This document shows, in pieces, positions 41,204 through 48,546 of a stretch of DNA of 64,000 bases. The position numbers were made by a program, and so were the translations under genes. This DNA is from Escherichia coli (GTDB lineage: Bacteria; Pseudomonadota; Gammaproteobacteria; Enterobacterales; Enterobacteriaceae), in the NCBI RefSeq assembly GCF_044647545.1, contig NZ_CP172818.1; one strand, given 5' to 3'. Within the stretch, counting starts at the first letter, position 1. Every line of letters begins with the position of its first letter. The notes beneath the pieces were generated by a model. The model saw nothing but the letters and a program-made list of their open reading frames with translations, was not told the origin of the DNA and did no database searches.

Positions 41204-41974
41204 TTAGCAAATAATCAATCCTAAAGCACTCATCGTGTTGTCCGTGTTCATACCGGTGTGCCTTTGACAACGGTACTCCTTAGAAACTCTCTTTGGACTG
41301 TTGCCGAAATGTTTGCGGAACGCATAAATAAAATAAGATGTACTCGCATAACCACATTGTTCGGCAATTTTATTGACTGAACCTTCTACGCGTATCAAAT
41401 TTTTTGCGTGCTGCATTCTGGCATCTAAAAGAATCTGTGAGAATGTCGTTTGCTCTTGCTTTAGTTTTTTCTTCAACAGGCTTTCACTGATGTACAGGCA
41501 GTCACAAATATCTTTCAGCTTCCATGGGTGCGCCAGCTTCATGTTGACAATATTTCTCACTTTCCCGGAAACGGATAGCACACCGTTAGTTAATAGTGTA
41601 ATGAAACCTTTGCATGCGGCAAAAATAGACAGGCAAGAAAAAAGCAAAAGTTCTGAAAAATTATGATGATTGCGTTCTTCCGAGTTGAGATAAGCAATCA
41701 TTTCATTAAGCAATCCAGTCGGTACATTTGAAGCACGTAAAAACTTCGCAGGAACAGGCACCGTCACTGTCTGAATGTTAGTGCATTGTAGATATTTTTT
41801 AATGGTATTTTCATTAAATCCGATTTCTTTGAAATGCCGCTCATAAGGTTCAAAATGCGTACGAACAGCGTTATCTACCATCAGGATCTCGCCGTCAGAG
41901 AAGGCGTAATCTTTATCTAAAATGTTAGCGTTGAAGGCATGATGAATAAATATAACAGAACAAACGAGCGACAT
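41204..41974 (-). CDS. ydeO: AraC-family acid-resistance regulator
   Basis: 256-aa ORF with a C-terminal AraC-type HTH; immediately downstream of safA. Confidence 0.9.
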   Translation of the reverse strand: MSLVCSVIFIHHAFNANILDKDYAFSDGEILMVDNAVRTHFEPYERHFKEIGFNENTIKKYLQCTNIQTVTVPVPAKFLRASNVPTGLLNEMIAYLNSEERNHHNFSELLLFSCLSIFAACKGFITLLTNGVLSVSGKVRNIVNMKLAHPWKLKDICDCLYISESLLKKKLKQEQTTFSQILLDARMQHAKNLIRVEGSVNKIAEQCGYASTSYFIYAFRKHFGNSPKRVSKEYRCQRHTGMNTDNTMSALGLIIC

Positions 41975-42048: not shown

Positions 42049-42246
42049 TCAGTCTTGCAAACTATTGATAATGAAATGTGTAAGATCTCTTGCAATGCGA
42101 CCCATTTCTGAAATACCCAGCTGATCAATTGCCGAAAAAATGGCTATCAACGTAAGTGTCAGTAATAAGACAACCACAATTACAGACATGATTTCTTTAT
42201 AGTTGTCTCTTTGCGTGATTTTGTTTTTCACTGTGGTCGCATGCAT
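42049..42246 (-). CDS. safA: small membrane protein, PhoQ-activating connector SafA
   Basis: 65-aa ORF with a single transmembrane helix. Confidence 0.88.
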   Translation of the reverse strand: MHATTVKNKITQRDNYKEIMSVIVVVLLLTLTLIAIFSAIDQLGISEMGRIARDLTHFIINSLQD

Positions 42247-42357
42247 TTCAAATATGTTTATTTAGCGGATAACGTTAAAAATCGTTAATCAGTATGCTTA
42301 ATATAACAGGCTGGAAAAAAGAGGAAATAGGACTGGTGCTTCAGTACTGAGCGGAGT

Positions 42358-42378
42358 TTCTTACAGCTGTAGGCAGAA
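42358..42378. promoter_or_regulatory. EvgA-box-like inverted repeat upstream of safA-ydeO
   Basis: ttcttacagctgtaggcagaa; near-identical to the motif at 45022-45041 upstream of ydeP. Confidence 0.6.
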
Positions 42379-42493
42379 GTTTATATCTTATAGTATGTAG
42401 TCTAATTTAATCCATGTGAGCAAATTGCGCGATAATAGTCAATGAGGAATTCTTCTGCTGTGCGGATGACAGCAGAAGAAATGAGAAGAGGCA

Positions 42494-44773
42494 TTAATTT
42501 GATGGTTCTAATTCAACCGGAATACTTTTATAGCCAGGAATGCCACTTAATGGATCGTGGTTATCAAGTGTTAGCATGTGATTCGATTCTGGAAAATAGG
42601 TCACCAGTGAGCGGTCAGCCATAGGGTAAATGACCACTTTTAATCTATCCATGCGTCGTGAGCTACGTTTACCGTCTGGCGTGAGTGCAATAAGATTAAC
42701 TCTTTCGCCGTTTTTTACACGGCAAATTTTAGCTTGTTTAGCACTCATAAAGACCACATCTCGTTGACCGAATACACCTCGATAGCGATCATCCATACCA
42801 TAAATCGTCGTGTTGTACTGATCGTGGCTGCGTACTGTCGCCATGACCAGTTTACTGTTAAACGCTGAAGAGGGATCTTCTAACAGCCCTTTGCTGGTAA
42901 TGAAATTAGCCTTACCTGACGGCGTCATCCAGCGCCTTTCAGCAGCTGCGTTTATCAGGTGAAAACCACCAGGATGACGGATGCGCTGGTTATAGTCGGC
43001 AAACTCTGGCAGCACAGCTTCAATGTCATTGCGAATGCGATCATAATCTTCCACCAGATACTCCCAGGCTACCACGCTCTGGGGTAGTGCTGCCTGCGCG
43101 ATTCCCGCGACCACTGCACACTCTGATTTCAGCATTACACCGGCGGGTTTTAACACACCACGCGAGGCATGAATCATCGACATTGAATCTTCAACGGTTA
43201 CCGCCTGCGCACCGCTTTTTTGCATGTCAATCTCGCTACGTCCCAGAACCGGCAGAATATAGCTATGCCGTGCGGTCAGCAGATGAGAGCGGTTAAGCTT
43301 AGTGGCTACGTGTACAGCCAAATCTAATTGCGTTAACGGTACAGCGCTCGCTTCCCGATCTGGCATTGCCAGCGCAAAGTTGCCCCCCATGCAGATCAAT
43401 GCTCGAGCTTGCCCCGTACATATTGCTTGCATGCTGGCAATTGCAGCATGTCCAGGTGCATGAGGTGGGGTGAAACCATAGCGCTCACCCAGGCGAGCCA
43501 GAAACTCTGCAGACGGTTTCTCGGTGATACCGACGGTTCGGTCGCCCTGTACATTAGAGTGACCTCGTAGTGGGCAGATGCCCGCACCAGGCTTGCCAAT
43601 GTTACCTTTCATCAACAGCAGATTGACCAGTTGCTGTACATTCTGGGTACCATGTTCGTGCTGAGTGATCCCCATTCCGTAACAGATAATGGTGCGGTCG
43701 GCAGCGGCATATGCATCAGCCAGTTCGGCGATTTGAGTCTGACTTAGTCCAGAAATACGCTCGATATCTTTCCACTCGGAATTGAGAACGTCACGGCGTA
43801 GCTCGTCAAAGCCGACGGTATGCGTTTGAATAAATTCGTCATCCAGCAATGAGGGCCGACCTGCGGCGCTTGCAGCATCATCGCGCTCAATTAACAGGCG
43901 CATCATCCCCTTGAGCAACGCCATATCACCACCAATGCGCACGTTGTAGTAGGCACTGGCCAACTGAGTCTCAGAGTTCGTCAGCATTTCAAACGGGTTT
44001 TGCGGTGCGGTAAATCGCTCCAGGCCACGTTCCTGTAGAGGATTGATGGCGATCATTTTCGCTCCCCGTTTCACTAAAGCGCGCAACGAACTCAGCATGC
44101 GAGGGTGGTTTGTACCAGGGTTATGCCCAATGCAAATGACTAAATCGCATTTCTCAAAGTCTTCCAGCAACACGGTCCCTTTACCTACACCGATACTCGC
44201 TGCCAAACCCACACTGGTCGGTTCATGGCACATGTTGGAGCAGTCGGGGAAGTTATTGCTCCCGTATTCACGGGCAAAAAGCTGATAAAGAAAGGCAGCT
44301 TCATTGGAAGTGCGGCCCGAAGTATAGAATTCAACCTGATTGGGATCACTATAGCTTTGAAGGCGTTCGCCAATTTCGTCGAAAGCTTGTTGCCAGCTTA
44401 ATGGCTTGTAACAGTCGCTGACGGCATCATATTTCAAAGGCTGGGTGAGACGCCCCGCAGCCTCAAGCTCGTGGTCTCCCCAGGTAAGTAATGATTGAAC
44501 CGTATTCTCAGCAAAGAAAGAGGCGTTTACCTGCTTATCCGTGACTTCCCAGGCGATTGCTTTTGCGCCGTTTTCACAAATGTCGAATGACGCACTGTGC
44601 TTAGGATCTGGCCATGCACAACCCGGACAGTCAAAGCCCTCTGGCTTATTCATGTCAAACATGGCAATAACATCCTGGCGTATATCCATCTGCTTACGTA
44701 CTGCATTCGCTACGGATTTAACAGCACCCCAACCACCGGCAGCCCCCTGGTAGGATTCAATTTTTTTCTTCAT
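42494..44773 (-). CDS. ydeP: molybdopterin oxidoreductase-family acid-resistance protein
   Basis: 759-aa ORF, formate-dehydrogenase-like. Confidence 0.92.
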
Positions 44774-45021
44774 CTACTTATCCTGTGTGGAAATGAATTA
44801 TTAGGATTTGAAATAGCGATGATGCACAGTATATACAAAGGGATTATCGTCAATATGGATATATAAGAGTAGGGGACTACTCTCTTTCTATTTTTAATCT
44901 ATTATCGTTAAATAATAGAATGGTATAAATACGATAAGTTAAGCATCATCTCTCATAGTGTTTAAATTAACATGTTTTTCAATATAAAAAATAAGACTCT
45001 GGCGTTAATTGTGCGCGGATT

Positions 45022-45041
45022 TTCTTACAGGTGTAGGATAA
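45022..45041. promoter_or_regulatory. EvgA-box-like inverted repeat upstream of ydeP
   Basis: ttcttacaggtgtaggataa; shares TTCTTACAG[C/G]TGTAGG with the safA upstream motif. Confidence 0.6.
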
Positions 45042-45111
45042 TAGCCTTCACAAAATAATTATCCGCGCAATTTTCGCGAATGGAGCGCATAGACTAAGGT
45101 CAAAATCACAA

Positions 45112-46026
45112 TTATTCATAGATAAAAGTGACACCAATGACTGACTGGACGGTTCCGGCTGCAACCTTGTTTCCTGTTTGTCCATAGGTTGCGCTTAAAC
45201 CCAGAGGTACTTTGCTTTTATTTACTGTCCCCAGGGAGACATTTTCTCCCGTTGCCAGTATTTTTCCATTACGTATCAGAGAGACACCCACTCCCGATGC
45301 TTTTGTTGCATCAGGTGCCGTGTTAGCAAACACTTGTCGGGCACTGTCAGTGGTGGCACCCGAAAGATAAAATGAGAGCTTTTGTTCGCTTGAGCAATAT
45401 ACGCCAAGGGGTATTTCTGCGCTTCCAGGAAAGTCCGGGAGATCCACGGTGACATTACGACTATCAACAGTGCAGCCGCCTGTTGGCATAACAACACTGT
45501 TATTTGAAATAATATTCCACGTAAAATTACGCGGATTTCCGCTTCCTAACGTGGCAATTTTATACATATGAATACGGGCAATAACTTCCCCGGCTTTTAT
45601 GACAACTCCACCGGCCGCCCCGACTGGGGTAATATAGAGTTTTAACGGTAATGGCATCGGTGTCTTATCACCAATATCCAATACGTTGGTATTTGTCGTC
45701 AACGGGAAGGGGTAGGTCACATTATTCCAGTACAGCGATCCCTTATATGACTGTAGAGAGCCTGCGAAAGCTGAGCCTTGTACCAGGTTTATATGATCAG
45801 TGTCGTACCAGCCGCCGTAATCATTCCAGCAACTTATATGCTGAGACAAGTCTACAACCAGATTCTGGCCCGGCTGTATTACAGGGTCGAGATTAACATA
45901 AACAGAGGTTGTACCAGCTCCAATACTTGACCCGCCATCGACATTACAACTGAAGGCAAAAACTTTACCTGCCATTAATAGAAAATAAATACCGAACAGG
46001 ACCTTTATACTGATTGTTTTACCCAT
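45112..46026 (-). CDS. ydeQ: fimbrial adhesin-like protein (FimH-like)
   Basis: 304-aa ORF with a signal peptide, last gene of the fimbrial cluster. Confidence 0.85.
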
Positions 46027-47145: not shown

Positions 47146-48294
47146 TTAGCGACAGATTGCTGTCTGCTGGTTCAGTAAGGTACCAGGAGAAACTTCAGGA
47201 AGCTTGTACTCGACAATACAGTTTGAGTTTTTATCTTTGCCCCATGAAACCTGTAATTTCCCTGACTGTGGAAGTCCAGTCAGATAAACCTGACCGTTTT
47301 CCGCGACAATGCTGCCATTTTTATTCTGTCCATGTGTGACAATTGCACCGAATGGAACGCTCTTATTACCGTACTTCAACGTCATTAATACTTTCCCGCC
47401 GATTTGTGCATTAAATGTTGCTCTGGCAATAGCACCGTGAGTTGGGATGACAGTGACAACGGTTTCATCCAGTTCAACATTATCTGCAAGGGAATTCGCG
47501 TTAAGAGCGACACGATTTTCTCTATATTCTGTCGCAAATGGTAATATGGCATAGCCACGCCAGTCGGTATGAATACCGGTCTGGTTCTCTATTTTGACAT
47601 TATCAGCGCCAGGAGCCTTAACCAGAACCATTGTGTCGCCCAGCGGCTGTCCAAAGGTGATGCCATCAGCATGAGCAATAATGCCACCACTCATTCCGTA
47701 ATAAATCTGGCTGCTGTCACCACTCCGACTGTAACCGATATTCGTATTACCGTAAGCTCCACGATAATTAAGAGAACTGTAACCACTGGTGCCAGACGAT
47801 GTATTACCCCCGTGGGTGTTACCGACCTGAACACTATAATTCAGGTTATTATCCGGCAGCAGAGTGCCATAAACTCCCGATAGATTGGTCATGCCGCCTT
47901 TCAAATCGTTTGACATACTGTAACTGGCGTTTGAGTTACGAAATGTCGACTGACTGTCTGTACGCATCCAATGACTGAAGGGAACATTAAGCGTAAAAGC
48001 AAGTAAATGATCCCGATCGTTTTGCCATATATTATTGGAATAGCTGTAATTCAGCGAAGTCGTAATATCACTAAACGGCACATTTAATCCAAATGATATT
48101 TGCTGGTCGCTGCGTGACGTGTTCCAGTAACTTTGGCGACTGGCACTGAAAAATGTCGTACCGTAATTTCCAAGCTGCTGAGAGATGCTTATTTGTTCCT
48201 GACCACGCTTACTGTAGAACAGATTAAAATAATCAATAAATTGTGTCTGCTCATTGCTGTCTCCGGTAGGAGGCTTGACGGTGTAACCACTCAT
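47146..48294 (-). pseudogene. ydeT: C-terminal fragment of a fimbrial usher (FimD-like), N-terminal half missing
   Basis: 382-aa ORF beginning at an internal Met with no signal peptide; ushers are typically over 800 aa. Confidence 0.8.
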
Positions 48295-48546
48295 TCGACT
48301 GTAGGCACTGTCGGATAAGTTATAAAAACCTTGCGTAGAATAGCGATATCCTGCGACCTGGATATTGGTTCCACAACAAGTTTATTGCAGCACTTGTTGA
48401 AGAGAGTATTTGCAAAGACATTTTATGTCGCTAAATAACATGACGATTTCATTATGCATGTTATTTATAAACCGTGACTAAACAGAATATTATTGCGAAC
48501 AAGGGAAGTGTCAGGAAAGGTCAAGAGCGACCAATGGCTTATATGG

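Follow-up and report, generated by a model that had tools for sequence, protein, structure and literature searches.

The window, by which is meant the entire 64-kb stretch of DNA that was analyzed, is a segment of the Escherichia coli chromosome in which the genes ydeO, safA, ydeP, and ydeQ are arranged in series on the minus strand (Table 1). The identities that had been assigned to safA, ydeP, and ydeO in the original prediction, which was made from the letters of the sequence, match the RefSeq annotation of the corresponding E. coli records. Moreover, the spacer between safA and ydeP is 100% identical to that of FDAARGOS_497 and 98.7% identical to that of K-12. This spacer contains a hairpin just past the ydeP stop codon and upstream of the safA box described below, which yields a favorable RNA fold (-17.5 kcal/mol, z -4.4) and is kept in all alleles compared. 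The hairpin is not called by a terminator scan because it has no T run. It is probably a leaky terminator or a stabilizer between ydeP and safA, and the absence of a U-tract is consistent with partial read-through into safA-ydeO. At a distant location in the window, a SECIS_3 selenocysteine insertion element (Rfam, 84 bits) is found on the plus strand at 14849-14907, presumably in the formate dehydrogenase N gene fdnG.

Table 1. Genes and regulatory features of the ydeO-safA-ydeP-ydeQ region, in window coordinates.
Feature	Coordinates	Strand	Basis or remark
ydeO	41204..41974	-	ORF and annotation; AraC-family activator of gadE, second gene of the operon; PMC4222967
safA	42049..42246	-	65-aa ORF; connector protein activating PhoQ; RefSeq annotation of (near-)identical records
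Shared module, safA copy	42273..42375	-	Box to about +20; ungapped in-register identity, sliding-window extent
Predicted safA-ydeO transcription start (about 42293, an A)	42292..42294	-	-10 position and in-register ydeP alignment
Predicted extended -10, safA promoter, TGtTATATT	42300..42308	-	Sequence reading; in register with the ydeP element
GTCCTA block, safA promoter (about -40 to -35)	42328..42333	-	Resembles EvgA half-site TTCYTA; invariant in 10 alleles and L016
EvgA box, safA-ydeO promoter	42358..42375	.	Inverted repeat, plus strand TTCTTACA-GC-TGTAGGCA; 1 mismatch from TTCYTACANNTGTARGAA
Hairpin 3' of ydeP	42450..42480	-	12-bp perfect inverted repeat, 14 nt past the ydeP stop; without U-tract
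ydeP	42494..44773	-	ORF and annotation; acid-resistance oxidoreductase, regulated from the second box
Shared module, ydeP copy	44937..45039	-	Same alignment; also in L016
Inferred ydeP transcription start	44956	-	Published K-12 leader of -178, plus 5 bases in the window
Extended -10, ydeP promoter, TGtTAATTT	44964..44972	-	Sequence reading; in L016 only the n position is altered
GTCTTA block, ydeP promoter	44992..44997	-	Counterpart of safA GTCCTA
EvgA box, ydeP promoter	45022..45039	.	Plus strand TTCTTACA-GG-TGTAGGAT; 1 mismatch from consensus
ydeQ	45112-46026	-	ORF/annotation

A motif resembling the EvgA box had been predicted about 110 nt upstream of safA, and the sequence at this location is as described. 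The window reads ttcttacagctgtaggcagaa at 42358-42378 and ttcttacaggtgtaggataa at 45022-45041, the latter being upstream of ydeP. The predicted box is present, but its functional unit comprises 18 bp (42358-42375) rather than 21, such that the GAA at 42376-42378 lies outside. Both boxes lie upstream of their genes, and the distance to the ATG is 112 nt for the safA box (TTCTTACAGCTGTAGGCA) and 249 nt for the ydeP box (TTCTTACAGGTGTAGGAT). The string TTCTTACAG[C/G]TGTAGG is held in common at 15 of 16 positions, and the 16 of 17 that had been counted originally is reached when the preceding T (42357 and 45021) is included.

To score such sites, the consensus TTCYTACA-N2-TGTARGAA was used as the EvgA box, and it was checked independently by using the safA 18-mer as a probe. 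Masuda and Church are said to have proposed the EvgA box in 2003 as an 18-bp inverted repeat, TTCPyTACA-N2-TGTAPuGAA. EvgA footprints have reportedly been obtained at ydeP and b1500(safA)-ydeO by Itou and colleagues in 2009, and at emrK by Kato and colleagues in 2000. The resemblance to the EvgA consensus that had been noted for the safA and ydeP motifs holds for both, as each differs from TTCYTACA-N2-TGTARGAA by a single mismatch and sites of the same family are located upstream of other EvgA-induced genes. Read in the direction of transcription, the safA box (minus strand) is TGCCTACA-GC-TGTAAGAA and the ydeP box is ATCCTACA-CC-TGTAAGAA. In both, the promoter-facing half-site is the better one and the asymmetry of the box sits in the distal half. 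Searching the 64 kb for TTCTTACAGSTGTAGG with up to two mismatches yields exactly two matches, the safA and ydeP boxes, where 0.05 are expected. The same two matches are returned by TTCYTACANNTGTARGAA at this threshold, with 0.04 expected and with none of 100 shuffles reaching two. No third site within three mismatches of TTCYTACA-N2-TGTARGAA is present in the 64-kb window.

Boxes were also sought in K-12 upstream of other EvgA-induced genes, namely emrK/evgA, frc, yfdX (two copies), and yegR. The box upstream of frc (TTCTTACAACTGTAAGAA) is perfect and is located 252 nt from the gene, whereas that of yegR (TTCCTACATAAGTAGGAA, 107 nt upstream) carries one mismatch, the one in the emrK-evgA intergenic region (TTCTTACGCCTGTAGGAT) carries two, and the two yfdX boxes carry one and three. 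Within the 22-kb evg region of K-12, four matches are observed versus 0.26 expected, and all four are intergenic. A test that is independent of this consensus employed the safA 18-mer as the probe with its spacer masked. It finds a site with two or three mismatches out of 16 in each of the five other regulatory regions, and no segment below four mismatches among 3000 random 400-nt E. coli segments. In all, about 130 kb of E. coli DNA was scanned for boxes. The hdeD-gadE intergenic region of K-12 contains no EvgA box with three or fewer mismatches, and thus provides no evidence of a canonical EvgA box at gadE. Exact k-mer motif discovery over six regulatory regions returned only AT-rich 6-mers. 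It missed the boxes because these differ from each other at one or two bases each. Separately, an EvgA-box-like sequence with two mismatches (TTCTTACGCATGAAAGAA) is found inside the mdtE coding region of K-12 (L014, 7887-7904); about four such two-mismatch sites are expected per genome by chance.

The claim that both operons are direct targets of EvgA is supported by statements in the literature. Direct binding of EvgA to the safA-ydeO promoter is reported (PMC9496106, citing Itou 2009), and activation of ydeP by EvgA is reported as well (PMC11210196). An EvgA binding site is said to be present in all directly regulated genes, and emrKY and frc/oxc are described as EvgA-regulated (PMC4283999), as are EmrKY, Frc, and YdeO in a 2026 preprint (bioRxiv 10.64898/2026.05.06.723403). 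Indeed, the ydeP and safA promoters serve as standard EvgS/EvgA-dependent reporters (PMC4283999; bioRxiv 10.64898/2026.05.06.723403; PMC11210196).

The boxes were then examined for conservation among diverse E. coli alleles, 10 for safA and 11 for ydeP, with spacer identity down to 89%, a small sample that affords modest power. Variation in the safA box occurs only at the first spacer base and at the outermost base of the distal half, and variation in the ydeP box occurs only at both spacer bases and at position 17. None of these alleles differs in the core TTCTTACA or TGTAGG of either box. A divergent lineage whose YdeP is 96% identical (L016) has indels and scrambled DNA upstream of each box, but the box cores are kept. 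This lineage also retains three blocks downstream of the boxes, AAAnTCCGC, CAGTCYTATTT, and TGnTAWWTT, with the n of TGn altered in both promoters. On a larger scale, among 5426 complete E. coli genomes, 5370 (99.0%) carry a single copy of a 34-mer containing the safA box, and 5319 (98.0%) carry a single copy of the equivalent ydeP 34-mer.

The ydeP box carries a common natural polymorphism at its second-outermost base (window 45038; K-12 L012 8747), which in the direction of transcription reads ATCCTACA in the window versus AGCCTACA in K-12. By exact 34-mer matching, the window type is carried by 1766 and the K-12 type by 1747 of the 5426 complete genomes, or roughly one third each. The allele in the window is nearer to the consensus than that of K-12, whose ydeP box (TTCTTACAGGTGTAGGCT) is two mismatches away.

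Outside of E. coli, no box with two or fewer mismatches was found near the ydeP homologs of Edwardsiella, Yersinia rohdei, Raoultella, Tatumella, Burkholderiaceae, and others in 658 kb of sequence. This absence is in line with PMC5706723, which describes evgAS and safA-ydeO as limited to E. coli. YdeP itself is 84-85% identical in Edwardsiella (L017, L018, L020), which lacks an EvgA box there, and 56-67% identical in other Enterobacterales. On these sequence comparisons, horizontal transfer is suggested for the Edwardsiella ydeP gene. There are also exceptions within the species, as the safA box 34-mer is missing in about 1% of complete E. coli genomes. In E. coli SFE8 (L011, NZ_CP051219.1), an IS1 element and fimbrial genes have taken the place of the safA box, safA, ydeO, and the rest of the DNA that normally follows ydeP, in a manner that recalls the 13-kb safA-ydeO deletion in strain MP1 (PMC5706723). 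Finally, a 13-kb contig from a 'Candidatus Nanosynbacter' metagenome-assembled genome (L015) encodes a YdeP protein that is 100% identical to that of the window and carries the K-12-type ydeP box. This contig is almost certainly E. coli contamination.

Short motifs of this kind can arise by chance in AT-rich intergenic DNA, and the safA and ydeP palindromes might be such accidents with no function. Both are indeed short, with 16 specified positions, and each is imperfect by one mismatch. However, two are seen in 64 kb that should yield 0.04-0.05, related sites are present in five further EvgA-regulated regions and in none of the 3000 random segments, and the cores are invariant in diverse alleles and in the divergent lineage while their flanks vary. 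A chance origin is therefore so improbable that it can be set aside.

Another possibility is that the palindrome acts at the level of RNA, as a hairpin, terminator, or processing site in a ydeP-safA-ydeO read-through transcript. The safA box does lie in the ydeP-safA spacer, which some papers treat as part of a ydeP-safA-ydeO transcript (PMC11052181), and the hairpin after ydeP lacks a U-tract. Nevertheless, the folds of the two boxes with their flanks are no better than those of shuffled sequences (-2.1 and -2.7 kcal/mol, z +0.17 and -0.15), and a 2-nt spacer is too short to form a loop. Furthermore, the ydeP box is upstream of its own transcription start, and the alleles exhibit no compensatory changes that preserve pairing, with variation confined to the spacer and the outer bases. 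Such a role for the RNA is extremely unlikely.

Between each box and its gene lie predicted promoter elements, and these are arranged alike in both cases. The gap between the box and the extended -10 element is exactly 52 nt in the safA and ydeP promoters, and neither has a recognizable -35 element at the right distance, with ATTTCC occupying that place in safA. A sigma-70 consensus scan reports no promoter upstream of safA because the scan requires a -35. For ydeP, the scan candidate TTAACG-16-TATATT at 45008-44981 was rejected, and the extended -10 at 44972-44964 is preferred because it fits both the published -178 leader and the alignment with safA. The safA -10 in the divergent lineage keeps TG and TATATT, with T>C at the n position.

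Transcription start sites can be placed relative to these elements. The 5' leader of K-12 ydeP is taken as -178 to +10 relative to the ATG (PMC11210196, 2024), and the ydeP leader in the window has five extra bases compared to K-12 (a 5-bp indel), giving a 5' UTR of 183 nt. The start implied by the -178 leader lies 8 nt past the extended -10 and puts the box center at -74.5. For safA, the predicted start would give a 5' UTR of about 47 nt and a box center at about -73.5. In MG1655, these starts fall at about 1584006 (safA) and at 1586664 (ydeP). No experimental start sites for safA or ydeP were found in the Cappable-seq or GadEWX supplementary data sets.

Some additional sequence features were encountered near the ydeP promoter. 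A 9-bp perfect inverted repeat, TGCGCGGAT / ATCCGCGCA (window 45012-45020 and 45061-45069), brackets the ydeP box with 40 nt between its arms. A terminator-like hairpin that follows ydeQ (45081-45061, minus strand) includes the upstream arm of this repeat as well, and the promoter-side arm corresponds to the conserved AAAnTCCGC block, which is present in safA too. In addition, the promoters of ydeP (window 44951-44968, minus strand) and K-12 yegR (L013 8343-8359, minus strand) share ATTTAAACACTA(T)GAGAG around the -10 element and start site (local alignment p ~0.003), with an offset of 5 nt relative to the EvgA box.

The near-identity of the safA and ydeP motifs on which the original prediction was built is real, but the likeness is not confined to the box and extends over about 100 nt, down to the transcription start. 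When the two promoters are anchored on their boxes and compared without gaps, identity is 8 of 30 positions upstream, 15 of 18 in the box, and 46 of 78 downstream. The downstream value corresponds to z = 6.6 versus shuffles, whereas the best out-of-register alignment gives 28 and no other position in the window exceeds 37 of 78. In the divergent lineage, the two promoters still agree at 44 of 78 positions. The emrK promoter shares this module weakly (31-33 of 78, p ~0.001-0.006). A gapped local alignment with +2/-3 scoring does not detect the safA/ydeP likeness, whereas ungapped in-register identity does.

This in-register likeness over roughly 100 nt might indicate that one promoter is a recent duplicate of the other, and that the safA box is a relic while safA-ydeO is driven by read-through from the ydeP promoter. 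The hairpin following ydeP is not a canonical terminator, and some authors name a ydeP-safA-ydeO operon (PMC11052181), both of which would accommodate this explanation. Yet the safA copy keeps its TGnTATATT -10, its box core, and GTCCTA under purifying selection, even in the divergent lineage where the surroundings have decayed. In addition, acid and EvgS strongly induce P_safA reporters from which the ydeP promoter is missing (bioRxiv 10.64898/2026.05.06.723403), and direct binding of EvgA to the safA-ydeO promoter has been reported (PMC9496106, citing Itou 2009). A safA box that is merely a relic is accordingly very unlikely.

It must also be considered that the box might be bound mainly by a regulator other than EvgA, such as the NarL/FixJ-family-type RcsB, GadE, or NarL (heptads TAAGAA / TTCCTA-like). 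The half-site TTCYTA / TARGAA resembles the RcsAB box. It also resembles the primary-site heptads of BvgA, TAAGAAATTTCCTA (PMC7250471), and PhoP, YdeO, RcsB, and H-NS have been reported to influence the safA promoter (bioRxiv 10.64898/2026.05.06.723403; PMC11210196). On the other hand, the promoters that bear the box coincide exactly with those that EvgA or constitutive EvgS induces, comprising emrKY, frc/oxc, yfdX, yegR, ydeP, and safA-ydeO. The half-sites face each other across a 2-bp spacer, opposite to the BvgA arrangement, and species with RcsB, NarL, and PhoP but without EvgA lack the box. A different principal regulator is thus highly improbable. The reported repression of safA by PhoP could not be mapped, given that a PhoP-box search at three mismatches is uninformative (170 matches versus 153 expected). 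As a separate observation, one perfect match to the PhoP-box direct repeat KGTTTA-N5-KGTTTA (TGTTTAGTCACGGTTTA) occurs on the minus strand at 48468-48484, and the truncated fimbrial usher ORF ydeT (47146-48294) lies about 174 nt downstream of it. It is the sole match in the window with no mismatches, where an estimated 0.03 would be found by chance, and judged from the letters it could be either a chance match or an undescribed PhoP site.

EvgA therefore remains the regulator of choice, and 42358-42375 is very probably the EvgA operator of safA-ydeO, with 45022-45039 being the equivalent operator of ydeP. The sequence match, the regulon-wide family of sites, the conservation of the boxes, their restriction to one lineage, and the promoter geometry common to safA and ydeP are documented here and all bear on this assignment, while direct EvgA binding and EvgA-dependent induction come from the literature. 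The two boxes are EvgA operators that have already been described, and the regulation they confer is already known. Compared with the EvgA box of the EvgS/EvgA regulon, the sites have the same sequence, length, 2-bp spacer, genes, and organism, with no essential difference, and hence are the same sites.

A plausible sequence of events begins with mildly acidic pH, under which the EvgS kinase would phosphorylate EvgA, a NarL/FixJ-type response regulator. A dimer of phosphorylated EvgA would then bind the 18-bp box, with one helix-turn-helix domain per TTCYTACA half-site. From about 74 bp upstream of the start, a position that depends for safA on the predicted start site, EvgA would activate sigma-70 RNA polymerase at an extended -10 element (TGnTAWWTT) that has no usable -35, presumably through a contact between EvgA and the polymerase across this distance. 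Among the products, SafA would act on PhoQ/PhoP and YdeO on gadE, and these would jointly launch the AR2 acid-resistance cascade. A box center at about -74 is far from the polymerase for an activator that binds as one dimer. Thus, a single dimer leaves the last contact unexplained, and a part of the mechanism is missing.

EvgA can be compared with two characterized relatives. NarL sites are '7-2-7' heptamer pairs, TACYYMT-N2-AKRRGTA. NarL belongs to the same protein family, and its sites likewise have two half-sites and a 2-bp spacer and are bound by a dimer of LuxR-type helix-turn-helix domains. However, the half-site sequence is different, TAC is described as lying inside rather than outside, and NarL sites tend to lie nearer to the promoter or to consist of multiple heptamers. 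The closest characterized homolog of EvgA is BvgA, and both are NarL/FixJ-type regulators of an unorthodox phosphorelay with similar heptad cores, TTCYTA for EvgA and TTTCCTA / TAAGAAA for BvgA. At the Pfha promoter of Bordetella, head-to-head BvgA dimers are spaced 22 bp apart, starting from a strong upstream site and ending at a poor -35 (PMC7250471). The high-affinity inverted repeat of Pfha is located well upstream of this poor -35, and the promoters examined here similarly combine a box at about -74, a poor -35, and a weak, half-site-like TCYTA located 42 bp downstream. There are differences as well, in that the TTC ends of the EvgA box are outside, whereas the TTT ends of BvgA sites meet at the center (TAAGAAATTTCCTA), and in that the EvgA box has a 2-bp spacer. 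Also, Pfha has an array of weaker dimer sites, whereas the candidate secondary EvgA elements here score no more than 2.6 bits.

Several observations pertain to these candidate secondary elements. Counted from the first base of the distal half-site, the GTCCTA block of the safA promoter begins 42 bp further downstream. T-C-Y occupies nucleotides 26-28 past the box in each of the six promoter-proximal cases (safA, ydeP, emrK, frc, yfdX, and yegR), and a position-weight-matrix scan ranks this as the best half-site-like position in register. The best such positions, at distances of 20-21 and 42 bp on the downstream side of the distal half-site, reach at most 2.6 bits, which is weak, with a circular-shift p of 0.018 that was obtained post hoc. 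A perfect 10-bp palindrome, TCAGTACTGA (42338-42347), located 21 bp from the center of the safA box, was considered as a second dimer site and rejected, as it is broken in the divergent lineage.

A possible, if doubtful, extension of the EvgA assignment is that the box marks only the upstream boundary of a roughly 100-nt module shared by safA and ydeP, and more weakly by emrK. The module would include the 52-nt gap, the extended -10, no -35, and a conserved TCYTA at about -38, and this extension would combine BvgA-like nucleation with cassette duplication. The TCYTA at about -38 would lie exactly four helical turns from the distal half-site. Under this arrangement, the inverted repeat at -74 might nucleate one or two further EvgA dimers at sequence-poor sites, aligned along one helical face and extending to the -35 region, and the safA and ydeP promoters might both have arisen from the duplication of a single cassette. 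As a hypothesis formed by analogy, a BvgA-like array of EvgA would fit the geometry of the two promoters.

The EvgS/EvgA acid-resistance cascade is entered at the safA-ydeO box, which controls both of the links that are encoded by this operon. YdeO is the link to GadE and glutamate-dependent acid resistance, and SafA is the link to PhoQ/PhoP. This cascade is a feature of E. coli and Shigella alone, and bears on the passage of these bacteria through the stomach. What the present analysis adds to the known regulation is the identical box-to-(-10) geometry, the likeness of the safA and ydeP promoters beyond the box, and the common natural polymorphism in the ydeP box. These points can be tested experimentally, and bear on how a regulator centered at -74 activates transcription.
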